Shown in pieces: positions 9,751 through 61,746 of a stretch of DNA of 64,000 nucleotides. Every line of letters starts with the position of its first letter. Positions within the stretch are counted from its first letter, which is position 1. The DNA is from a virus (Duplodnaviria; Caudoviricetes): the IMG/VR virus record IMGVR_UViG_2603880160_000004, positions 33,477 through 97,476 of that record, one strand, 5' to 3'. The notes under the pieces are model-generated. The model did not search any database and had not been told where the DNA came from. It was given only the letters and a program-made list of their open reading frames with translations. The position numbers were made by a program, and so were the translations under genes.

Positions 9751-9830
9751 ATCTATATAAATATCTCTTTATGTATAATAAAAAACCCCTCATTTCTGAA
9801 GGGTTTATCTACGACTTTATAATAATATTG

Positions 9831-12658: not shown

Positions 12659-13086
12659 ATTATTTCAATTGAATTTATTTTATCTCCTTGTTGGATTAAA
12701 TCAATAACATCCAAACCATCGATTACTTTACCAAAACAGGTATGGTTTCTATCAAGATGAGAAGTGTTATTACGACTATGACAAATGAAGAATTGAGAAC
12801 CTCCTGTGTTTCTACCAGCATGTGCCATAGATAATACTCCCTTATCGTGGTATTGTTTTTCTGCTGTTACCTCACAAGGAATGTTATATCCTGGTCCACC
12901 TGCTCCCGTACCATTTGGACACCCACCTTGAATAACGAAATCAGGTAATACTCTATGGAAATTTAATCCATTGTAGAATCCTTCATTAATTAATTTTTTG
13001 AAGTTGTCGGTTGTTATCGGTGTTTCGTTGTCATATAATTCCGCAATCATATCACCTTTTACTGTTGAAATTTTTACTTTGCTCAT
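12655..13086 (-). CDS. cyclophilin-type peptidyl-prolyl isomerase
   Basis: FYNGLNFHRV, IQGGCP, LSMAHAG, GSQFFI, HTCFGKV. Confidence 0.95.
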   Translation of the reverse strand: MSKVKISTVKGDMIAELYDNETPITTDNFKKLINEGFYNGLNFHRVLPDFVIQGGCPNGTGAGGPGYNIPCEVTAEKQYHDKGVLSMAHAGRNTGGSQFFICHSRNNTSHLDRNHTCFGKVIDGLDVIDLIQQGDKINSIEII

Positions 13087-13186
13087 TTTTTGTTTTTTTA
13101 TATTTTTCCAGTATTTATTCTAGAATACTAGCACTAGAAGCAAAACTAGATATAAAGAATTCTAGTTTAATACTGGGTTAATTTAT

Positions 13187-13759
13187 TTAAATTGCTTCAT
13201 ACTCAATATCACCATAATCGTAATATTCGTTATCGTCATTATTTTCCACACCATCTTCTTCACCTTCTTCAATCTTCTTAATTGCTTCACATGCACTTTT
13301 AGCCATAACTCTATAAGTCCAAGATTGAACTAATGGTTGTTCAGCTTTAATTTCCCATTCTGTTTCTTCAGCGTCTTCAGGTAAATCCTCATCACAATCT
13401 GAATCAATAATGTTTTTTTCTTTTTCTAATGGTCTTTTAAATGTGTCAATTGATTTCATTAACTCATCCCTAAATTCAATTAATTTTTTTAAGTCAGTAA
13501 ATGTAAAATTAAAAGATCCAATTGTACTTGATAATTGAATGTCAACATGAGATTGTTCGTCATTTCCACAATTGTAAATGTAGAAACCATTTTCTTGACC
13601 CAACTCAATGTTGGAAGTGTCGGGATAAACTGAAATGTATTGGTCTGGGTTATCTTCAACCATAGTTTTAAATTCCCTTTCAAGAGACTCTAATTGGGAT
13701 AGACAATCTGAATATTTTTTAGTAAATTCTTTGTCCCACTTTTTAGTGTACTTTGCCAT
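13187..13759 (-). CDS. acidic hypothetical protein
   Basis: 190 aa; C-terminal VMAKSACEA motif resembles 32224..32508. Confidence 0.65.
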   Translation of the reverse strand: MAKYTKKWDKEFTKKYSDCLSQLESLEREFKTMVEDNPDQYISVYPDTSNIELGQENGFYIYNCGNDEQSHVDIQLSSTIGSFNFTFTDLKKLIEFRDELMKSIDTFKRPLEKEKNIIDSDCDEDLPEDAEETEWEIKAEQPLVQSWTYRVMAKSACEAIKKIEEGEEDGVENNDDNEYYDYGDIEYEAI

Positions 13760-16903: not shown

Positions 16904-18580
16904 TTAAATTGTTTTTTTATAAATATCTCTTACCGTATCAATTAACGATAATTTGGATTCGTTTATTTTAAATTTACTTTTAGGGGTTTTAGGTGTTTCT
17001 CTTTCCGGATAGTCACCGACATATTCTATTTTATTTCTTTCAACAACTTTTAATTTGTTCTCTAATAATTTATCATATTGACCTTCTTTAAGGGTATGAG
17101 GTATACGAATCAAACCCAAACCGTAATTATTAGTTTTAATAAATTCATTTTTTATATTATCACTTTCGTACAATATATTATAATTCATTTGTCTAGTGTA
17201 CTCTGATTTACCAAACGTGGGTTCAAAATGTTGTTTTCCGTCATATTCAATAAGAACATTATATGGTTCTGGTAAATAAAAATCAAATTTTTGATTACCA
17301 AGTTCAGGATAGTTCTTTTCTTTTTCAAATTTTATACCATTTTTTCTTAATAGTTCACCAATGTATCTTTCATTTCTTGATTCTTGACATATTGGACAAC
17401 CTTGTCCTGTAGAATGATTAGAGGGAGTTTGCCAAAACATTCCATGTTCTTTATCATTAGGACCTTTTACGTGACATTCAATAGGTATTTTTGTGTTTCC
17501 ATTAATAAATTCTTTATCAATATTTGGGTAAGTGTATTTAATCGACCTATTAGACTGAACATCCTCAAATTTTCTTTTATAATTATTTAAATTGTTAACC
17601 CTATCACATTCTTTACATTCAATTGAACCTCCTCTTTTAATTGCGTCTGTAATTGATGATGGGTAACTTCTTTCAATAGGGTATGGTGTTTTTCCATGTA
17701 ATGTACAACCAAGTGTTATCGGTGTTTCTCTATTGATATAGTCCGATAATAAAACAAATCTATCTCCCGAATATTCACGAACTTTATCCATGAAGTTTTT
17801 TTCTTCAATTGCAATTCTTTCACATTCTGAACATAAAGGTATTCCATCATAAAAATATTTTGCTTTTACTTTTGTGACTTCTTTATTATGTTTTTTACAT
17901 TTTATTTTTCCGTTTTGATACGGACTTTTATATTCCATACCAGACCACTCATACCAACTTATTGGAATGTGGTATAATTTCATTCTTTCTTTAACTTTTC
18001 TTATAAACTCTGCACGAGAAAGATTAATTGGTTGTTTAACTATTCCTTGTTCGTCTTTACATTTCCCACAACCAACATTTTGATATATGTGAAGTTGTGC
18101 ATTTTTTATAGTTTGTTTACCGTGAGGTTTTCCATCGGAACCAACTTTCGGACAATAAAAATCAAATTCATTATTGATACCAGTATATCTTCTTAAACCT
18201 GGTCTATTGTAGATATATAAAGGATTTCCATTTTCATCCTTCCATATCTCTTTTACCTTACTATAAAAATCATTTTTAGTTGATTTAATATTATTTTGAC
18301 TATCATCTTTTTTACACTCACTACATCCATTTGGACCAATACGACCTTTCAATAGATACTCAACAAGTGCAGGGAAATCAACGTTATGTTTCTTACAATG
18401 AACATTTACGGTTGAATTTTTTGTGAAATTTTCTTGATTACCGAAATCATAAAGACTACCTTTTCCATAAGGGAACAATTGTTTCATTTTTAATAAAAAA
18501 TCTTCCTTTGACCTCGCTTCAGTTTTTTCACTTAACGGTAATAGGTTTTCATCTTCCAATATAATATCAAATAATTTCAT
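16904..18580 (-). CDS. endonuclease with repeated CxxH/CxxC modules and C-terminal PD-(D/E)xK/Vsr-like domain (homing-endonuclease type)
   Basis: About five C..H..C..C modules; FDFYLP...LIEYDGKQHF...LIRIP. Confidence 0.75.
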   Translation of the reverse strand: MKLFDIILEDENLLPLSEKTEARSKEDFLLKMKQLFPYGKGSLYDFGNQENFTKNSTVNVHCKKHNVDFPALVEYLLKGRIGPNGCSECKKDDSQNNIKSTKNDFYSKVKEIWKDENGNPLYIYNRPGLRRYTGINNEFDFYCPKVGSDGKPHGKQTIKNAQLHIYQNVGCGKCKDEQGIVKQPINLSRAEFIRKVKERMKLYHIPISWYEWSGMEYKSPYQNGKIKCKKHNKEVTKVKAKYFYDGIPLCSECERIAIEEKNFMDKVREYSGDRFVLLSDYINRETPITLGCTLHGKTPYPIERSYPSSITDAIKRGGSIECKECDRVNNLNNYKRKFEDVQSNRSIKYTYPNIDKEFINGNTKIPIECHVKGPNDKEHGMFWQTPSNHSTGQGCPICQESRNERYIGELLRKNGIKFEKEKNYPELGNQKFDFYLPEPYNVLIEYDGKQHFEPTFGKSEYTRQMNYNILYESDNIKNEFIKTNNYGLGLIRIPHTLKEGQYDKLLENKLKVVERNKIEYVGDYPERETPKTPKSKFKINESKLSLIDTVRDIYKKTI

Positions 18581-43207: not shown

Positions 43208-43537
43208 TTATTGTGTCTCTCTTAATGTGTTTATCATTTGTCCCATCGTATTCCAATAATCTATATGTATTGTATGTGACGTAATCTCTCCACCCCTTAT
43301 GGTGTAGGTGACCACGATATTAGAAGCCTCTAATGGATATGCGTTGACGGTTCCCGCCACAATATTACCGTCACCATAAGTGTAATCCACCATCTTATAT
43401 GTTGCGGTTGTTGTTGTGATTTCATATCTAATTACATTATTGACATAATCATTGAAATATCTGAGTGCTTCAATGGACATTTGACCGTTAAAGTTTATTG
43501 TATCGTTCTTAGATAAAAATTTAAAATCTTTCATCAT
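43208..43537 (-). CDS. FKF-tag protein
   Basis: MMKDFKFL; similar to 44694..44990. Confidence 0.7.
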   Translation of the reverse strand: MMKDFKFLSKNDTINFNGQMSIEALRYFNDYVNNVIRYEITTTTATYKMVDYTYGDGNIVAGTVNAYPLEASNIVVTYTIRGGEITSHTIHIDYWNTMGQMINTLRETQ

Positions 43538-43923
43538 CGTCTTGGGTTTATAAAGTTATATGTATCAACTAATATCTCCTGATTTGTTGCTCCACCCATT
43601 TCCCACAGTTCAAATACTCCATATACCAAATCTGAATAAGCGCTATGAACAAATCTCCTTATCTCTTCGTGGGTTGTTATATGACCTCCATTAATAAATC
43701 CAACCGTTCTATTATATAAATCTGCCGATTCATTAAATAATGGATGATTTTCATTAAATATATTATAATGTGAAGCATAATGAGAATCCAATCTTCTATG
43801 GTATTCTTTTAGAAAACGAAGATTGCCAGTTAAACTGATTGTTTGATAATGATTTGGATTGATTTCTCTACCATACATATCCAACATAGATTTCACCCCC
43901 GATAAAAATTTAAATTGTTTCAT
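43534..43923 (-). CDS. FKF-tag protein
   Basis: MKQFKFL. Confidence 0.7.
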   Translation of the reverse strand: MKQFKFLSGVKSMLDMYGREINPNHYQTISLTGNLRFLKEYHRRLDSHYASHYNIFNENHPLFNESADLYNRTVGFINGGHITTHEEIRRFVHSAYSDLVYGVFELWEMGGATNQEILVDTYNFINPRR

Positions 43924-44143
43924 TTACAGTTTGCATTTGGTAATCAATCCAACCTCTATTCCACATATAGGCATATTGTGTATTTGCGTAACGATTATCA
44001 ATTATCTGATTTCCCACCATAGCACATAAATAACCAGCCTTATATACCTCTCTCATTAAAGGACATACTAAATCATCAGGATATGGAATAGTATTAGTTC
44101 CTGTTGATTTGTTATTACTTAAAAATTTAAATTGTTTTATCAT
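43910..44143 (-). CDS. FKF-tag RMF-like protein
   Basis: VYKAGYLCAMVG..NRY...MWNRGW. Confidence 0.65.
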   Translation of the reverse strand: MIKQFKFLSNNKSTGTNTIPYPDDLVCPLMREVYKAGYLCAMVGNQIIDNRYANTQYAYMWNRGWIDYQMQTVNETI

Positions 44144-44481
44144 ATTCCTGTTATATCTATTCTTCTTAAAAATTCTTCTTCATTCATCCTAAATGTGAAA
44201 TTTCTTGCTGTTGTGTTTATCTCTATCACACTATAATTAATCTCAACCGTAGGTGATAGTGAATTTAAATCCCAATTTCTCCAACCTGTAATTCTCAACC
44301 TACAATTATTAATTGGAACATTCACCATAGATAATTCAGTACCAAAATCACTAAGCATTTCTATATTATGATATTGTAACCACCTTATCACATTGATTAG
44401 AGCATCATCCATATTAAACATCAGATACATATTACCTGGTGGTTGTATTGGTATTGGTTTTTGAAAAAATTTAAAGTCCAT
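44140..44481 (-). CDS. FKF-tag protein
   Basis: MDFKFF. Confidence 0.7.
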   Translation of the reverse strand: MDFKFFQKPIPIQPPGNMYLMFNMDDALINVIRWLQYHNIEMLSDFGTELSMVNVPINNCRLRITGWRNWDLNSLSPTVEINYSVIEINTTARNFTFRMNEEEFLRRIDITGI

Positions 44482-44707
44482 TGTTTGCTCTTTGTTGTGC
44501 GTCTCTTAATATATCATATGAATGTTCTAATTCCCATCCCTCGTCAAATGCGTCAGATAATTCTAATCTTAAAAATGGATTATAATCTACGCTGCGTCCT
44601 TCTAAATAAGCTCGTCTTCCAATATCTATGGCACGAACAATTTCATCCTCCGTTGGGGTGATATAATCATCTTTCTTATTATTGTTTAGGAATTTAAATG
44701 TTTTCAA
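44471..44707 (-). CDS. FKF-tag RMF-like protein
   Basis: GRRAYLEG..NPF...AFDEGW. Confidence 0.65.
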   Translation of the reverse strand: MKTFKFLNNNKKDDYITPTEDEIVRAIDIGRRAYLEGRSVDYNPFLRLELSDAFDEGWELEHSYDILRDAQQRANNGL

Positions 44708-44990
44708 TAGTATGATTTGTTATGAATGCAAATGTATTTGCTACGGTTACCCAATATGTTATTATCATGTTAGTATCTCTATTAGGATATACTTTAACAA
44801 CAGCACGTGATAATTGTCCGAGTTCATATGTTGTTTCGGTAATAATATATTTGGCATCAAATGTTTCTGATATATATGTGTCTCTATATCTATTGTTAAT
44901 ATAATCATAAACCATTCCAATAACATGTCGTGACCATTCACCATTATATTCAATTGGTTTTGCTTTAGTTAAAAATTTAAATCTCTGCAT
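44694..44990 (-). CDS. FKF-tag protein
   Basis: MQRFKFL. Confidence 0.7.
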   Translation of the reverse strand: MQRFKFLTKAKPIEYNGEWSRHVIGMVYDYINNRYRDTYISETFDAKYIITETTYELGQLSRAVVKVYPNRDTNMIITYWVTVANTFAFITNHTIENI

Positions 44991-45282
44991 TTGGTGTAAA
45001 TGTTAATGTTACGTTAATATATTCCGCTTCTCGTCTTGGTAATTGGAATATTTGATTTCCCCTTATTTCAATTATGTCCGCCATATGGAATGATTCCTCG
45101 TGTTCGTGTATTAAATTTCCAGTGAGTGGAAGACGTGTATCATTATTCATAAAAATCATTGTTCTATACCTTCCTTGAACATCTTCATGAAATTTAATGG
45201 GACTAACACCGATGAATGTAAATCCTTCAACATCATATTGTCTTGGATTGAAAGGGGTTCTAAAAAATTTAAATGTTTTCAT
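44977..45282 (-). CDS. FKF-tag protein
   Basis: MKTFKFF. Confidence 0.7.
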   Translation of the reverse strand: MKTFKFFRTPFNPRQYDVEGFTFIGVSPIKFHEDVQGRYRTMIFMNNDTRLPLTGNLIHEHEESFHMADIIEIRGNQIFQLPRREAEYINVTLTFTPNAEI

Positions 45283-45598
45283 ATCTTTGCATTACTTCGT
45301 TAAACACATCCTCAGCAAGATGAAATGTGTGTTGGTTTATTCCGTTTCTGTCATATAATTCATATCTTATCCTCACATGTCTGGATTCAAAATAATCATG
45401 ACTTATTACATCATTAATCACCAAATGTCTAATAAAACCATTCTCCGCGAATTGATGTTGATATCCAACCGGTATTAAATGCATTCTATAACAATAACTT
45501 ATTAATCCTAATACCATATTCTCATATACATTTAGATGATAGAGTGGATCATCTTCAATGTTGATTTTGTTTTCTGTAAAAAATTTAAATGCTTTCAT
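45269..45598 (-). CDS. FKF-tag protein
   Basis: MKAFKFF. Confidence 0.7.
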   Translation of the reverse strand: MKAFKFFTENKINIEDDPLYHLNVYENMVLGLISYCYRMHLIPVGYQHQFAENGFIRHLVINDVISHDYFESRHVRIRYELYDRNGINQHTFHLAEDVFNEVMQRYENI

Positions 45599-46056
45599 TG
45601 TCTTAAAGTTAAACCAACTTCATCAACTAGTTGGTGAATATGGTCTATAGTTTCATTATATCCGCTTGATAATATATCGTGGATTCTATCCGTTAAAATA
45701 TAATCATCAAATGTTAGTCCATAACAATCATCAATCCGTGTTATTGATCTATATCTTGTGGTTTGATTGTTATTTCCGTTAAGATGTGTAAAATCTCTAT
45801 TGGTTATAATGAAAACACTACTTCTGTCAAATGTTTCATTTCTCCAATTATTGAAATCCCCCACGGATGATGCTATTACCGCACATTCTCTTGTACGCAG
45901 TGCGCCGTATAGTGAATTCCTAAGAATATGAAAGTCATTATCAGGTGGACCCAATGGTTGAACCGGCACAAGGTCTTGAGCGATGGTTCTTCCTGCACCT
46001 CTTCTTACTATCGGAAGAAAATAATCTTCTTTCTGGAAAAATTTAAATGGTTTCAT
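45595..46056 (-). CDS. FKF-tag protein with gp23/Gol-like segment
   Basis: MKPFKFF; LPIVRRGAGRTIAQDLVPVQPL. Confidence 0.7.
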   Translation of the reverse strand: MKPFKFFQKEDYFLPIVRRGAGRTIAQDLVPVQPLGPPDNDFHILRNSLYGALRTRECAVIASSVGDFNNWRNETFDRSSVFIITNRDFTHLNGNNNQTTRYRSITRIDDCYGLTFDDYILTDRIHDILSSGYNETIDHIHQLVDEVGLTLRQ

Positions 46057-46408
46057 TGTCTCTTATTACTCCTCTGAATATTAGTGGTCTATCCTTTGGC
46101 ATATCATCAAAATTATCTTGGTTGTAATGTATCATATTACTTATGTTTGTGTTGTCCACAAATTCATATACAAATATAATCTTATCTCTACTCATTTCCA
46201 TAAAATGATTGTATGAATTGATATATCTATTTGTAACTGTCACCGTCATCGTCTTTAATTCCTCGGTATAAAAATTTCCATCCCATCTATTTTCCATATA
46301 GAATATTACACCCACCGGTCTATACATCCATTGTAATTGACCGAGGTAATCACTCCTTAAATACCATTTTCTCTCTATATTCTTTTGGAAAAACTTAAAT
46401 GGTCTCAT
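46043..46408 (-). CDS. FKF-tag protein
   Basis: Start moved to MRPFKFF. Confidence 0.7.
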   Translation of the reverse strand: MRPFKFFQKNIERKWYLRSDYLGQLQWMYRPVGVIFYMENRWDGNFYTEELKTMTVTVTNRYINSYNHFMEMSRDKIIFVYEFVDNTNISNMIHYNQDNFDDMPKDRPLIFRGVIRDNETI

Positions 46409-46739
46409 ATAAAGATATATTTTCTTGAGTGGTAAAATCACAATAATATTCTGTATCAGGAAACTTTACACTATATTCTATCACTATTCTATTAGGTATG
46501 TTAAAATATGGTACAATATTATTTATCTTATAGAAATAAGTTACCCCTTCACCAATTTCGTTTTCTACTCTATACTCTACTGATGAAAATAATATCATAT
46601 TCTCCCTATGTAAACCCACCGCTACTTCCATTATATGTCCATACATATCTAATGGGATGCTGTAGGTTGTATTTGTATCCTTGGTGATTATTAGAATATA
46701 TTGTATTCTTGTCCCCAAAAAGAATTTAAATGGTTTCAT
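46395..46739 (-). CDS. FKF-tag protein
   Basis: MKPFKFF. Confidence 0.7.
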   Translation of the reverse strand: MKPFKFFLGTRIQYILIITKDTNTTYSIPLDMYGHIMEVAVGLHRENMILFSSVEYRVENEIGEGVTYFYKINNIVPYFNIPNRIVIEYSVKFPDTEYYCDFTTQENISLYETI

Positions 46740-47020
46740 ATGTAACCTCCATTTCTTACAAGTTCATCGTGACCAATTACATTTACCGCATTGTCGAATC
46801 TTTCTCGTAATAGTTCCAGTAATCTATCCCTATTCATATGATCATCCCACATTCTCATGTAACCCCTGTTGACACAATTCAATCGGGATCTGATTTGATA
46901 TGAAGAGTGATGTGTTTGAATGCGGAACATATATCCGTCTATTTCAATATCCACCCATCTTAATCCTATGTATGGATTTTCTTCTTCTATTTCTCTAAAA
47001 AATTTAAATGGTCTAATCAT
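46736..47020 (-). CDS. FKF-tag protein
   Basis: MIRPFKFF. Confidence 0.7.
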   Translation of the reverse strand: MIRPFKFFREIEEENPYIGLRWVDIEIDGYMFRIQTHHSSYQIRSRLNCVNRGYMRMWDDHMNRDRLLELLRERFDNAVNVIGHDELVRNGGYI

Positions 47021-47231
47021 TTCTTCTTTTTAATTCATTATCTAATATAATATACCACTCGGTTGCCGTTCTCCCATCTTTTTGATTAGGCAATGTACCA
47101 TTAGTTACCAAAAGTTTCATTATTCGTTTGATATAATCTGTGCTTATGGTTTCCAATGGATGCATCAATCCACCGTATGTTCTCCATTTAGGTGGGGGTG
47201 TCCCTTTAAAAAATTTAAAATCCATAGTCAT
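47013..47231 (-). CDS. FKF-tag protein, paralog of 55587..55823
   Basis: MTMDFKFF; WRT.GG..EW..IL.NEL.RR. Confidence 0.65.
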   Translation of the reverse strand: MTMDFKFFKGTPPPKWRTYGGLMHPLETISTDYIKRIMKLLVTNGTLPNQKDGRTATEWYIILDNELKRRND

Positions 47232-47613
47232 GTTCTTCCCATTTACATTTTTCATAAATAATATGATTAATCTCCGCTTCAACATCAATACTCATCCAAG
47301 CACCCGCTGCAAGTTCTTGTATATATCTTCTTATTGTTACACTATTCGTATGAACCGCAACCTCATCGATCTTCCTTCTAATATCATAATCACTATAAGA
47401 ATTATATTTGTCCCTATATAATTTGGTCATAACAATAATCAATATATTTTTAACCCTGTCATTATCCATTAGATTATTATCCTGAATATATTTGTATGTG
47501 ATGTCCAATACACCAATCAATAATGGAACATTTGTTGCATCGTCTAACAAACCGGTTAGTTGCCAATTTATTCTTGTTTCGTTTGATCTAAAAAATTTGA
47601 AGTCCTTTATCAT
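47215..47613 (-). CDS. FKF-tag protein, first gene of the operon
   Basis: Start moved to MIKDFKFF; TATATTTG promoter at 47621-47628. Confidence 0.7.
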   Translation of the reverse strand: MIKDFKFFRSNETRINWQLTGLLDDATNVPLLIGVLDITYKYIQDNNLMDNDRVKNILIIVMTKLYRDKYNSYSDYDIRRKIDEVAVHTNSVTIRRYIQELAAGAWMSIDVEAEINHIIYEKCKWEEHDYGF

Positions 47614-47699
47614 ATCATAACAAATATACAAAAAATATTTTGTAATATAAAAAATCCCCACCGAATTAACGATGAGGACTATTTCTTAATTTATTGCTG

Positions 47700-50231: not shown

Positions 50232-50459
50232 TTATATTCCACTTGGTATTTTACCGAACTCTTTATAACTTAAATAATTGTAATATCCTGCCAACCACAC
50301 TTTCTTTATTCTTGGTGAGAAATAATCAGCACACGCGTAATTATATCCATTCTTTCCCGCCGTCCAACCATAACGATAGTATGATATTTCAATATCATTT
50401 TTCAAATATCCTTTTGGATATAATACTGGATTAAAGAATTTAAACTTATCTATCTTCAT
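50232..50459 (-). CDS. FKF-tag RMF-like protein
   Basis: YYRYGWTAGKNG...VWLAGY. Confidence 0.65.
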   Translation of the reverse strand: MKIDKFKFFNPVLYPKGYLKNDIEISYYRYGWTAGKNGYNYACADYFSPRIKKVWLAGYYNYLSYKEFGKIPSGI

Positions 50460-50889
50460 ATAATTTATAATCTATTCTAACAAATTCGTGATTAAATAAA
50501 AATCTTGGGTTTACAAATCTTGGTTCGGTATTGTAATTAATAATATAGTCAACCCCAACAAATATTCTTCTTATTCTTGGATAACAAGGTATCCAATCTT
50601 CACCTGTGTTATTTCCAAGTGACATTCTTCTATTTTCATAATGACTCTTGAAATCTTTTATTGGTCCTGACCAAGATACTATTCGGTATTGATTATTTAT
50701 GATATCTCTTGGTTCCCATATAAATGCAAAACTTTCATAATCAAAGTTTAGTGATAATGGATATTCACAAAAAGATAATTGTCTTTCACCTGGCCGAAAT
50801 TCCTCTCTTGGTATGTGTATATAAGGAACATAACCAGTCGGAACTGCCGATTCTTTTTTTGTGTTTAAAAATTTAAAATCTTTTATCAT
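50446..50889 (-). CDS. FKF-tag protein
   Basis: MIKDFKFL. Confidence 0.7.
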   Translation of the reverse strand: MIKDFKFLNTKKESAVPTGYVPYIHIPREEFRPGERQLSFCEYPLSLNFDYESFAFIWEPRDIINNQYRIVSWSGPIKDFKSHYENRRMSLGNNTGEDWIPCYPRIRRIFVGVDYIINYNTEPRFVNPRFLFNHEFVRIDYKLYEDR

Positions 50890-51116
50890 TACACATCATT
50901 ATTTCGTTCATACATCGTAACTCCCTCTCGCCACAATTCATACTTATATTCTTCCACAAGTGGATTGTATGGTGACTCTAACGAACGACTATTACGGTAA
51001 CAATCAAATGCATCATAATATCCTTTTGTGTATATGTTTCTATCCTCAGGACTTAAACCACTATATCTATTGGGTATAGGAACTTGTTTTTTTGAGAGGA
51101 ACTTAAATGTTTTCAT
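50889..51116 (-). CDS. FKF-tag RMF-like protein
   Basis: IYTKGYYDA..SPY..LWREG. Confidence 0.65.
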   Translation of the reverse strand: MKTFKFLSKKQVPIPNRYSGLSPEDRNIYTKGYYDAFDCYRNSRSLESPYNPLVEEYKYELWREGVTMYERNNDV

Positions 51117-52399: not shown

Positions 52400-52972
52400 T
52401 TATATTACATCAGGAAAATTATACATATAGTGGTCTGGATAAATTGTTTGTCCTTCCACTGTGTTCCCTTCTTCAATACTTCTAAACAACATAACTTTAT
52501 ATGGCTGCGGCAAAATAGAATCGTATCTTTCTTCGGACACATCAAAGAACAAAAACTCTTCTGTGTGATAGTATTCCATATCCCTTTCGGTATATGTTCT
52601 TGTTCTTCTATTGAAAAATTCTCTATCTGCGTGATAGTGTTCCATATCCCTTTCAGTATATGTTTCTCCATTACGACGTTCAAACCACGCGTGCCATCCT
52701 CTATTCCATATTTCAGCTCTTATTATATCGTCGTGATATGGATTGTTGTAATTAGCCTGTGATGATGCTTCCCACCCTTCAATATATAGTTCCATATTTT
52801 CTCGTTCACCACCTCTCAAATCTTGTGGTAACATATTCCAATGACGATGTGATATTCCTTCTGGTGGTGCATGTGTTATCTGCAACGGAATATATGGTGC
52901 ATAAAACTCACCACCGGTAGCAACAACTCTTGGACCAACTACCCCACGAAAAAAATTAAATGGTTTTATCAT
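52400..52972 (-). CDS. FNF-tag protein with gp23-like YAPYIPLQ segment, RMF-like domain and internal duplication
   Basis: MIKPFNFFRG; FYAPYIPLQ; YIEGWEA..NPY..WNRGW. Confidence 0.7.
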   Translation of the reverse strand: MIKPFNFFRGVVGPRVVATGGEFYAPYIPLQITHAPPEGISHRHWNMLPQDLRGGERENMELYIEGWEASSQANYNNPYHDDIIRAEIWNRGWHAWFERRNGETYTERDMEHYHADREFFNRRTRTYTERDMEYYHTEEFLFFDVSEERYDSILPQPYKVMLFRSIEEGNTVEGQTIYPDHYMYNFPDVI

Positions 52973-53307
52973 ATGTATCTTATTGTTGATGTTCCATCTA
53001 AATGTTCATTTAAAAAATCTTCCATAAATCCAATTACCTGTTCATTACATATATAATTTCTATATCTATATTTTAATTCATCTATCATTGCTCTAACAGA
53101 TAATTCGTCCATGTCACCATCATAAATTAATTCTAATTGTGTATTTTGAACTCCTACATAAAAACCAAGATGTTGTGTGGGACCAGAAAAAAAATGTGTT
53201 GGTGGTTCGTTTGAAGTTATTACCTCAACAGGTACACCTCCAACCAATAGGTCGTAGTGATATAATCTTTTTGGTCTCCCCTCAAAAAATTTAAATTGGT
53301 TTATCAT
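52969..53307 (-). CDS. FKF-tag protein
   Basis: MINQFKFFEGRP. Confidence 0.7.
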   Translation of the reverse strand: MINQFKFFEGRPKRLYHYDLLVGGVPVEVITSNEPPTHFFSGPTQHLGFYVGVQNTQLELIYDGDMDELSVRAMIDELKYRYRNYICNEQVIGFMEDFLNEHLDGTSTIRYI

Positions 53308-53308
53308 A

Positions 53309-53719
53309 TTATCCTCTTCTTTGTAAATTAACTAATGGGACACTTACTCTATGATGTTCCGTGTTATCGTTTATAGTGGTTAAATAAAGGATATGAAACA
53401 TTCCACCAATGTTTATACCACTTACAATCTTTAATTTTGTGTATCCATCCGTTTCTGCTAACCAACATTCATAACCTCTCCAATTTATACGTTGTCTCAT
53501 ACTAGTTCTTACACGATTGATAACAACACTATCATAGAAAGACCCATTTACTTCTATATAATTTGCCGGATTGTAGTTTGGGTCCGATACTATTTGTTGA
53601 ACCCTATCTGATAACTCGGCAAGTCTGAACCCACCATACAGGCTATTATTAATTATTCTATCACTATACTGATACAACCTTGATGGCCTACCCTGAAAAA
53701 ATTTAAATGGTTTTATCAT
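53309..53719 (-). CDS. FKF-tag protein
   Basis: MIKPFKFFQGRP. Confidence 0.7.
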   Translation of the reverse strand: MIKPFKFFQGRPSRLYQYSDRIINNSLYGGFRLAELSDRVQQIVSDPNYNPANYIEVNGSFYDSVVINRVRTSMRQRINWRGYECWLAETDGYTKLKIVSGINIGGMFHILYLTTINDNTEHHRVSVPLVNLQRRG

Positions 53720-54217: not shown

Positions 54218-54667
54218 CTAATGGTTATCTACAAAATCATTCCACCCCACATACCACATATTAAACTGGTGGGACCCGTATGTATGTGGGTTTTCATTTA
54301 ATGGAAGACCTAACTGTGCAGTTGCCCATCCCTCCTGATAAGACTCCTCATCGGTTGGTTGTATTTGTCTTGATGGGTGGTGAAGAAAACATTCAAGATA
54401 TCCACTTTCCCATATTCTATGTAATGAATAAATTAGTTCTTCCCTATTACCATACGGATTATCATATACCTCCATACCTCTTTCACAAGCTCTCCATCCT
54501 CTTCCGAATATTCTTTTTTCTCTTGGTGTTTCACAATTTTCAGGATATGGAATTTGACCCATAGGTATCCTTGGATACCTTGGTTGTGCTAATGTTAATC
54601 TTTCTTCTATGTCAACTATTCTTGCACTGATTATTCCCCTTAAAAAATTAAACTTGGGAAGTTTCAT
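54218..54667 (-). CDS. FNF-tag protein with two RMF-like domains
   Basis: Start moved to MKLPKFNFLRG; GWRACERG..NPY..WESGY and GWATAQLG..NPH..WYVGW. Confidence 0.7.
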   Translation of the reverse strand: MKLPKFNFLRGIISARIVDIEERLTLAQPRYPRIPMGQIPYPENCETPREKRIFGRGWRACERGMEVYDNPYGNREELIYSLHRIWESGYLECFLHHPSRQIQPTDEESYQEGWATAQLGLPLNENPHTYGSHQFNMWYVGWNDFVDNH

Positions 54668-55586: not shown

Positions 55587-55823
55587 ATGGAGTTTAAATT
55601 CTTAAGGGGGGAAATATTTGATAGGAACGTCTGTTGGAGGTCTCAAAATGGTCGAGATACCCCTATTTTTTATATGACCACTAGTCACATTGAGAATACT
55701 ATTTTATGTTTACGTGGTGTGGGTCTAACCGAAATACCCGACCCGTATAATGGGAAAACAAAAGACGAATGGATTCGTATATTGACTAATGAATTAAGAC
55801 AAAGGTTAAATGAAAATAATTAA
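55587..55823 (+). CDS. FKF-tag protein on the opposite strand
   Basis: Start moved to MEFKFLRG, behind TATCTTTG at 55576. Confidence 0.7.
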   Translation: MEFKFLRGEIFDRNVCWRSQNGRDTPIFYMTTSHIENTILCLRGVGLTEIPDPYNGKTKDEWIRILTNELRQRLNENN

Positions 55824-61033: not shown

Positions 61034-61354
61034 TTATGGTCTGTATCTTAAATATGTAATATGAATTGGGTCTGTTTGAATATTAAATCCCCACCCATTT
61101 CCTTCGTTTTCACTATTATGAACCACACCATTTGGACCAACAATAGAGCTCACAGGAATTACCATTTGTGATGGAAACATTCTTAAAAATTCAATAATAC
61201 CGTTAGTGTCCACCGAAATAATATCGTACATCTCATCTGATGGGTCCATTGAACTTTCCCACATCCAAGAGGCAATTTCCACATTCTCTAAATTGATATA
61301 ACCTTCTGGCATATCATCGTCATTGTCCGTTAAAAATTTGAAGTCCTTTATCAT
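61034..61354 (-). CDS. FKF-tag protein
   Basis: Start moved to MIKDFKFL; ATGA overlap. Confidence 0.7.
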   Translation of the reverse strand: MIKDFKFLTDNDDDMPEGYINLENVEIASWMWESSMDPSDEMYDIISVDTNGIIEFLRMFPSQMVIPVSSIVGPNGVVHNSENEGNGWGFNIQTDPIHITYLRYRP

Positions 61355-61746
61355 GCTCCGAATAATTTCATTACACCTATGAATGTAACAACTGACACTA
61401 ACAGTGTCATCACCACAACACCGATAGGTTCCAACTTCCAAGTTTCAATTAAAACCAATTTAACTCTTGTTCCAAATATCTTAACCTTAGTCCATAGTGT
61501 TGGGTTCACCGTTATGGTTGTTGTTGCTTGAAACAATCTAATTTGTTCGTCCACGTCTCTATCAAGACGTTCAACTCTTTGAAAATGTTCGGCATAATAT
61601 CTTTCCATTTCATTATTGGATAAGGGATTTGCATTAACTTCTACCCTTATTCCATTCGGATTGTGGATTGATGCAGTGGCATATGTTTGTCCGTCCATTA
61701 TATCTAATGTGCCGATATAACCCCTGAAAAACTTGAATTTAGTCAT
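61351..61746 (-). CDS. FKF-tag protein with C-terminal TM helix
   Basis: MTKFKFFRG. Confidence 0.7.
   Translation of the reverse strand: MTKFKFFRGYIGTLDIMDGQTYATASIHNPNGIRVEVNANPLSNNEMERYYAEHFQRVERLDRDVDEQIRLFQATTTITVNPTLWTKVKIFGTRVKLVLIETWKLEPIGVVVMTLLVSVVTFIGVMKLFGA

Follow-up and report, generated by a model that had tools for sequence, protein, structure and literature searches.

The window analysed here, a stretch of 64,000 nucleotides, belongs to a virus record of 97,476 bases with a CheckV completeness of 27%, whose relatives include records of 335,630 bases (100% complete) and 316,007 bases (95% complete). The source is a jumbo phage with a G+C content of approximately 31%. Non-structural genes identified in the window encode a nuclease, a thymidylate kinase, an endolysin, an HNH endonuclease, a methyltransferase, a ParB-like protein and a helicase; a 558-residue open reading frame (ORF) resembling HNH/homing endonucleases (PHROG 559, E = 6e-40) lies on the minus strand at 16904-18580. 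The minus strand also carries an array of small overlapping genes that begin with a common N-terminal tag, and the ninth of them, P0001, is the subject of this analysis. The principal features are as follows.

43208..47661, minus strand: array of 14 head-to-tail small ORFs with an M..FKF[FL] tag (from the sequence)
45595..46056, minus strand: ORF P0001, 153 amino acids plus stop; tag, capsid-like peptide and predicted alpha/beta domain
46030..46056, minus strand: N-terminal tag MKPFKFFQK, residues 1-9 (read from the sequence)
45937..46023, minus strand: core module resembling the capsid N-arm or "Gol" stretch, residues 12-40 (matches to T4 gp23, the capsid protein of relative G001 and Pfam Gp23)
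45904..45936, minus strand: extension of the capsid-like match, residues 41-51 (BLASTP, 14/36)
45598..45897, minus strand: predicted compact alpha/beta C-terminal domain, residues 54-153 (AF2 model)
50232-51116, 52400-53719, 54218-54667 and 61034-61746, minus strand: further tagged ORFs (tag pattern)
55587-55823, plus strand: further tagged ORFs (tag pattern)
45595-46056, 44140-44481, 46736-47020 and 61034-61354: examples of lysine-poor tagged ORFs (composition count)

Each of the 13 junctions within the array is an overlap, of 14 nt in six cases, 4 nt in four, 11 nt in two and 8 nt in one. Codons 1-5 of P0001 overlap the final 14 nt of the upstream gene, which ends ...DNETI-stop and whose TAA falls within the Phe-Lys codons of the P0001 tag; as a consequence of such 14-nt overlaps the upstream proteins end in ..NETI or ..ENI, with the stop inside the tag codons of the next gene. 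At least 23 small ORFs in the window begin with M-x(0-4)-F-[KRN]-[FL]-[FL], a pattern that the P0001 start MKPFKFF fits, and a literature search found no paper combining "FKFF" and "phage". The bodies of the tagged proteins are depleted of lysine and rich in arginine: lysine makes up 0-3.6% in 20 of 24 entries, four of which have none, whereas lysine accounts for 8.0% and arginine for 3.1% in 223 large ORFs of G001, a complete relative. Residues 11-153 of P0001 contain 14 arginines and no lysine. The tagged gene at 45269-45598 (minus strand) lies between orthologues of two genes adjacent in G001 (12980-13453 and 13440-13745), and represents gain or loss of a cassette within the array.

The phage is a giant one from lake water and is uncultured. 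Runs from 22 further studies, nearly all of them lake-water or freshwater metagenomes, contained 37-77% of the words sampled from the array, and no RNA run was among the listed runs matching the array. Isolate phage genomes yielded neither a tblastn match to P0001 at E ≤ 0.01 nor a megablast match, no PHROGs family was found for it at E ≤ 0.1, and the ESM Atlas returned no usable match.

The original prediction had placed a segment resembling the Gol peptide of the T4 major capsid protein right after the tag, aligned without gaps to the T4 sequence. The segment, YFLPIVRRGAGRTIAQDLVPVQPLGPPDN, indeed occupies residues 12-40 of P0001 (window 45937-46023), three residues behind MKPFKFFQK; the T4 string of that prediction is the correct sequence of gp23 residues 94-122 (T4 gene 23, NC_000866), and a recount of the gapless alignment gave exactly the predicted 10 identities in 29 positions, the common residues being VRR, IA, D, VQP and P. 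When the whole window was translated in six frames, the P0001 segment was the only 29-mer with at least 10 identities to the T4 segment, and its BLOSUM62 sum of 41 compares with 16 for the next-best 29-mer. In 20 mononucleotide shuffles no 29-mer reached 10 identities, and the best BLOSUM62 sum of shuffled 29-mers with at least 8 identities was 23. By BLASTP, the match extends beyond the core: residues 16-51 of P0001 align to gp23 98-132 with 14/36 identities and one gap (E = 4e-4 in a single comparison), residues 41-51, DFHILRNSLYG, facing QVFALR-AVYG of T4. A stretch there, ILRNSLYGAL, also resembles motif B of family-B DNA polymerases. That assignment was rejected, as N[ST]x[YF]G is absent from every large ORF in the G001 polymerase region (147-150 kb) and, by BLASTP, the gp23 match runs on through this stretch.

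The gp23 profile search that had been proposed as a check found Gp23 (PF07068) as the sole Pfam family matching P0001 at E ≤ 1 (E = 0.011), residues 13-77 aligning to profile positions 8-68, with a score of 15.5 bits that lies below the gathering cut-off of 24.4 bits. Among aligned homologues, 16 of 24 matched Gp23 at E ≤ 1, and one of them, P0112, which is 68% identical to P0001, exceeded the cut-off with 30.3 bits (E = 3.7e-7); two short proteins described below, P0139 and P0137, scored 23.8 and 23.1 bits. The module family as a whole covers profile positions ~3-68. P0001 lacks the entire HK97-fold body (positions ~99-356) that Gp23-family capsid proteins possess, and is not itself a capsid protein.

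The capsid gene is absent from the 97-kb record, in which the P0001 ORF is the only Gp23 match, and since this record is only 27% complete the comparison was made with the capsid protein of the complete 335-kb relative G001 (P0122, 591 amino acids, Gp23 E = 1.7e-72), taken as the reference for the clade. P0001 residues 10-38 align to residues 71-99 of this protein with 11/29 identities (38%, E = 4e-4), and comparing the profile of the small-protein family with that of 26 clade capsid proteins gave E = 3.5e-4 over 33 columns. Reciprocally, an HMM of the 32-position module, run unfiltered over all 1066 G001 frames of at least 60 amino acids, retrieved the P0001 orthologue at E = 1.5e-21 and the capsid protein at E = 0.011, the next match having E = 7.2. 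The alignment of the 57-residue P0137, which consists of tag and module, to the clade capsid protein has E = 1e-7; of its 39 positions, 13 are identical and 25 positive.

A chance likeness of a short peptide, arising without common descent, is a very improbable account of these matches and is largely refuted already. In its favour count the brevity of the core match, the score of P0001 by itself, which is under the Pfam cut-off, and the lack of a capsid protein among the 20 matches at E ≤ 0.001 of an exhaustive library-wide search with the family profile. The 8 profile matches to PDB sequences at E ≤ 10 include neither gp23 nor gp24; hence the case for homology rests on a stretch of 30-40 residues. 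Two of the exhaustive-search matches, P0135 (SEA repeats) and P0141 (a T9SS-type protein), resemble repeat artefacts. Against chance stand the score of P0112 and the match of P0137 to the capsid protein, the fact that Gp23 is the only Pfam family and the capsid protein the only match in the genome besides the orthologue, and the failure of shuffled sequence to produce anything comparable. Profile, reciprocal and transitive comparisons thus agree with the predicted homology to the T4 Gol region, and together they show that the segment is a true homologue, by descent, of the N-arm/Gol stretch of Gp23-family capsid proteins.

The module is not a recent copy of the phage's own capsid gene. Nearly every position of capsid residues 67-104 is invariant across the 26 clade capsid proteins, the stretch reading VQAM...FFIPKIQE; at the corresponding site the module has VQP[LM] in place of the VQAM found in 26/26 of these proteins, and the LR..YG continuation of P0001 resembles T4 and not the clade capsid protein. 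The capsid lysines K84, K102 and K109 of the matched stretch are replaced by arginine, arginine and glutamine in P0137, K84 aligning with an invariant arginine of the module (R23), and this replacement fits the general purge of lysine from the tagged proteins. As a separate observation, residues 20-33 of the tagged ORF at 52400-52972 (minus strand), GGEFYAPYIPLQIT, resemble a C-terminal capsid motif, AGYVYAPYVPLQLT (capsid residues 532-545), with 9/14 identities; this falls short of significance (E = 0.11 in a search of 223 ORFs), and the stretch is possibly a third capsid-derived piece. Both this likeness and a capsid-like piece in 47215-47613 (E = 0.31) are too weak to be claimed.

Conservation of the segment, the absence of which had been named as grounds for abandoning the prediction, is pronounced. 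Of 192 candidates, 176 are homologues of P0001 at E ≤ 0.01, and the best 120 of these 176 are 66-97% identical to it. The segment is kept in 24/24 aligned homologues, in which R19, R23, T24, I25, L29 and P34 are invariant and Y12, P15, R18, G22, A26, P31 and Q33 are at least 90% conserved, and a 16-residue piece holding residues 41-51 is deleted in four of the 24 (P0084, P0090, P0104 and P0120). The dN/dS ratio, calculated by the Nei-Gojobori method for five orthologous genes, was 0.18-0.30 for the module in diverged pairs (window versus L004: dS 0.78, dN 0.14) and similar, 0.18-0.42, for the C-terminal domain, values which indicate that the module is held by purifying selection. Synonymous divergence between the window and L003 is mosaic, with a dS of 0.10 for the module against 0.48 for the C-terminal domain, implying recombination between the modules.

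The full-length AF2 model of P0001 has a pLDDT of 41.6, with residues 1-58 below 50. When residues 54-153, which contain no lysine, were modelled alone with a more diverse alignment, pLDDT rose to 92.1 with a pTM of 0.83, and the predicted topology was beta-alpha-beta-beta-beta-alpha-beta-alpha-alpha. On these models P0001 is predicted to be composed of the tag (residues 1-9), a disordered capsid-like peptide (12-51) and a compact alpha/beta domain. Fold searches with the C-terminal domain model returned only generic P-loop-like, Toprim and terminase-ATPase arrangements (best Foldseek E = 0.01, best VIA Z = 7.4), and neither the Foldseek nor the VIA list contained a capsid protein. No relationship to terminase ATPases is claimed: Foldseek probabilities reached 0.96 but with E ≥ 0.01, the VIA Z scores of 7.4 and 6.2 are in the range of a "common arrangement", and profile comparison with the clade terminase gave only E = 0.45.

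The module and the C-terminal domain are found in several combinations. P0137, which the family profile retrieved library-wide at E = 4e-6, and P0139 consist of tag and module alone, and may be truncated gene calls. In P0143, the tag and a 23-residue module precede another body; when this protein is aligned to the window ORF 55587-55820 (E = 6e-16), the gap, 23 residues long, coincides exactly with the module. Conversely, the exhaustive profile search found the same C-terminal domain behind other N-termini in P0125, P0127, P0128 and P0129. The C-terminal part of P0125 corresponds to the C-terminal domain of P0001 (69% identity, E = 2e-45), and its N-terminal part to that of the window ORF 52403-52972 (52%, E = 1e-16), which carries a motif resembling ribosome modulation factor (RMF). 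From these arrangements the peptide is seen to be a portable cassette, placed before two different bodies or standing alone. A capsid stretch has in this way been exapted as a short module, disordered on the AF2 model, right behind the start tag of a small protein that is no capsid protein. The likeness to RMF was followed through the tagged ORFs of the window.

54218-54667, minus strand: tagged ORF, RMF best Pfam match, E = 4.5e-5, below cut-off
44471-44707, minus strand: tagged ORF, RMF best Pfam match, E = 0.0039, below cut-off
52400-52972, minus strand: tagged ORF, RMF best Pfam match, E = 0.071, below cut-off
43910-44143, 50889-51116 and 50232-50459, minus strand: RMF-like motif recognised by eye or regular expression only

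P0125 and P0129 gave no Pfam match to RMF at E ≤ 1. The RMF-like motif may be a ribosome-binding module, and as the C-terminal domain also occurs behind it, the alternative N-terminal module points to the ribosome as well.

It is also conceivable, but unlikely, that the module is an evolutionary relic, a fragment of a capsid gene caught up in cassette shuffling that now serves as a linker or in a new role unrelated to the capsid. Shuffling of cassettes is indeed rampant, the 16-residue extension is dispensable in the four homologues that lack it, and the module has invariant residues of its own (R23, T24 and P34) that the capsid protein lacks. A relic is nevertheless difficult to reconcile with a module conserved under purifying selection, which retains precisely the residues common to capsid proteins as distant as those of T4 and of this clade and which recurs as a discrete unit on different bodies.

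A second capsid-derived piece occurs in the relatives of the phage. Each of the three relatives open to search, G001-G003, has a further small ORF that aligns to Gp23 positions 135-196, in the spine helix (47.7, 43.7 and 21.8 bits).

L009:1471-1710 = G001:C1:302925-303167, minus strand: tagged protein P0123 with the spine helix, Gp23 match
G002 (L010) and G003 (L008): spine-helix tagged proteins of the other relatives, Gp23 match

P0123 of G001 has 80 amino acids, an F-R-F-F tag and no lysine; it aligns to capsid residues 349-405 with 51% identity (E = 8e-18). Its family comprises 469 members at E ≤ 0.001 with sizes of 80-110 amino acids; PF07068 was matched in all of the best 120 of these 469, and the capsid-like part begins directly behind the tag. 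No ORF of this type was found on the 97-kb record of the window. Judged by the invariant positions of the 26 clade capsid proteins, the N-arm stretch and the spine helix are both among the best-conserved parts of the capsid protein.

What the module does can be approached through its T4 counterpart. The 29-residue Gol peptide of T4 is described as binding domains II/III of EF-Tu and thereby enabling the Lit protease to cleave EF-Tu, with 13 critical residues in a 20-residue core; no other part of gp23 is as conserved as this stretch, which has been proposed to bind EF-Tu in all hosts (PMC3014915, available portion of the text). In T4 the homologous stretch (gp23 94-122) accordingly acts as a short portable peptide, whereas here it is part of a 153-residue protein other than a capsid protein, between an FKFF tag and an unrelated alpha/beta domain; binding of EF-Tu and activation of Lit are features of T4, the likeness seen here being one of sequence. 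The N-terminus of gp23 is further described as directing fusion proteins to GroEL (PMC3012670, available portion), and no Cpn10 or Cpn60 genes were found in G000-G002.

By analogy with T4, the module could be a linear mimic peptide that would bind whatever recognises the same stretch on nascent, unassembled capsid protein and would tether the attached alpha/beta domain to that partner, most likely host EF-Tu or, more broadly, the translation or folding machinery. One consequence would be competition with the capsid protein for EF-Tu, which would blunt capsid sensing of the Lit type. The original prediction had listed an EF-Tu binder among three possible roles, beside a capsid-mimic decoy and an assembly modulator. 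We rank a tether to EF-Tu or the translation machinery first, tentatively and as a possibility short of an even chance, because the C-terminal domain alternates between capsid-like and RMF-like modules. Against such a tether, the RMF matches all fall below the Pfam cut-off, and it leaves unexplained the spine-helix piece of the sister family, which is better explained by capsid-centred readings, either an immune decoy or docking to the capsid or scaffold.

As an immune decoy, the tagged proteins would display the most conserved capsid peptides and so occupy host sensors that detect the capsid, with Lit-type, CapRel-type, TIR or STAND proteins as candidates, without activating them. The distribution of the pieces accords with this, as two tagged families in one phage clade bear two different parts of the capsid protein, both from the best-conserved set described above. 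Their genes lie in fast-shuffling arrays, as is typical of accessory genes, and the module retains the capsid residues found family-wide (RR, IA, D and VQP) while the remainder drifts. Moreover, defences that sense capsid proteins exist, as described for Lit/Gol (PMC3014915, available portion), CapRel and TIR-capsid systems. On the other hand, a capsid fragment made early might equally set off these sensors, the module is as a rule joined to a folded domain for which a pure decoy would have no use, and among the titles and opening lines of abstracts surveyed no precedent for a decoy made of a capsid fragment was found. Overall we regard the decoy as rather doubtful. The nearest concept is that of DSAD1, an anti-defence protein that blocks recognition of a virion protein, the tail tube, by DSR2; the module described here is a homologue of the capsid protein itself, a relationship that the available portion of that report does not describe for DSAD1 (PMC11087589).

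Under capsid or scaffold docking, the pieces would bind partners in the procapsid (the scaffold or core, or neighbouring subunits) and the tagged proteins would be loaded into or onto the head or modulate its assembly. In the HK97 fold, the regions from which the N-arm and spine-helix pieces derive presumably both face inwards. L/I-x-E is the consensus of prohead-protease-type cleavage sites, and no such site was found after the tag in either the P0001 or the P0123 family. An N-terminal tag on many unrelated bodies does resemble the logic of capsid targeting in T4, where a capsid-targeting sequence (CTS), likewise short, conserved and N-terminal, is found on many internal proteins that are small, fast-evolving and unrelated to one another (PMC3012670, available portion). 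The tag studied here differs from the CTS in sequence, in having no evident protease-type motif and in the position of its genes outside the head module, beside those for a helicase and nucleases. Docking is also disfavoured by divergence, as identity between the module and the clade capsid segment, itself near-invariant in 26 capsid proteins, is only 38%, and, more weakly, by the element TATTTATA, which precedes 42 of 223 large G001 ORFs, including those for terminase and scaffold, but none of the 25 tagged genes of G001. Taken together, this makes docking distinctly unlikely in our judgement.

Returning to a tether or decoy built on mimicry, the broadest claim would be that lake phages of ~320-335 kb put the best-conserved peptides of their own capsid on tagged, lysine-purged proteins and so mimic the capsid protein, whether for hijacking EF-Tu or for blinding host immunity; we consider this claim a somewhat doubtful one. 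In this family nature has moved the Gol stretch onto unrelated small proteins, which amounts to a natural minimal-peptide experiment. The reason for the conservation of Gol, and how general its binding to EF-Tu is, have been open questions since the Lit/Gol work (PMC3014915, available portion), and a strong candidate for the conserved partner of the capsid stretch is whatever the module binds. If the decoy or the EF-Tu tether holds true, it would constitute a device of a novel kind, used by the phage for counter-defence or takeover, and if mimicry of the phage's own capsid protein does, that device would be one of self-mimicry of a virion protein. Either the decoy or the tether would also help to explain the very large family of tagged, lysine-free proteins in lake-water metagenomes.

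The element TATTTATA probably acts as a promoter element for genes of a single temporal class; it lies 9-43 nt upstream of the 42 large G001 ORFs mentioned above (L015-L031). In the window it reads TATAAATA on the plus strand and occurs at positions 9756, 15428, 19981, 21063, 21585, 40841 and 42979, at a distance of 5-9 nt past the start of several genes on the minus strand.
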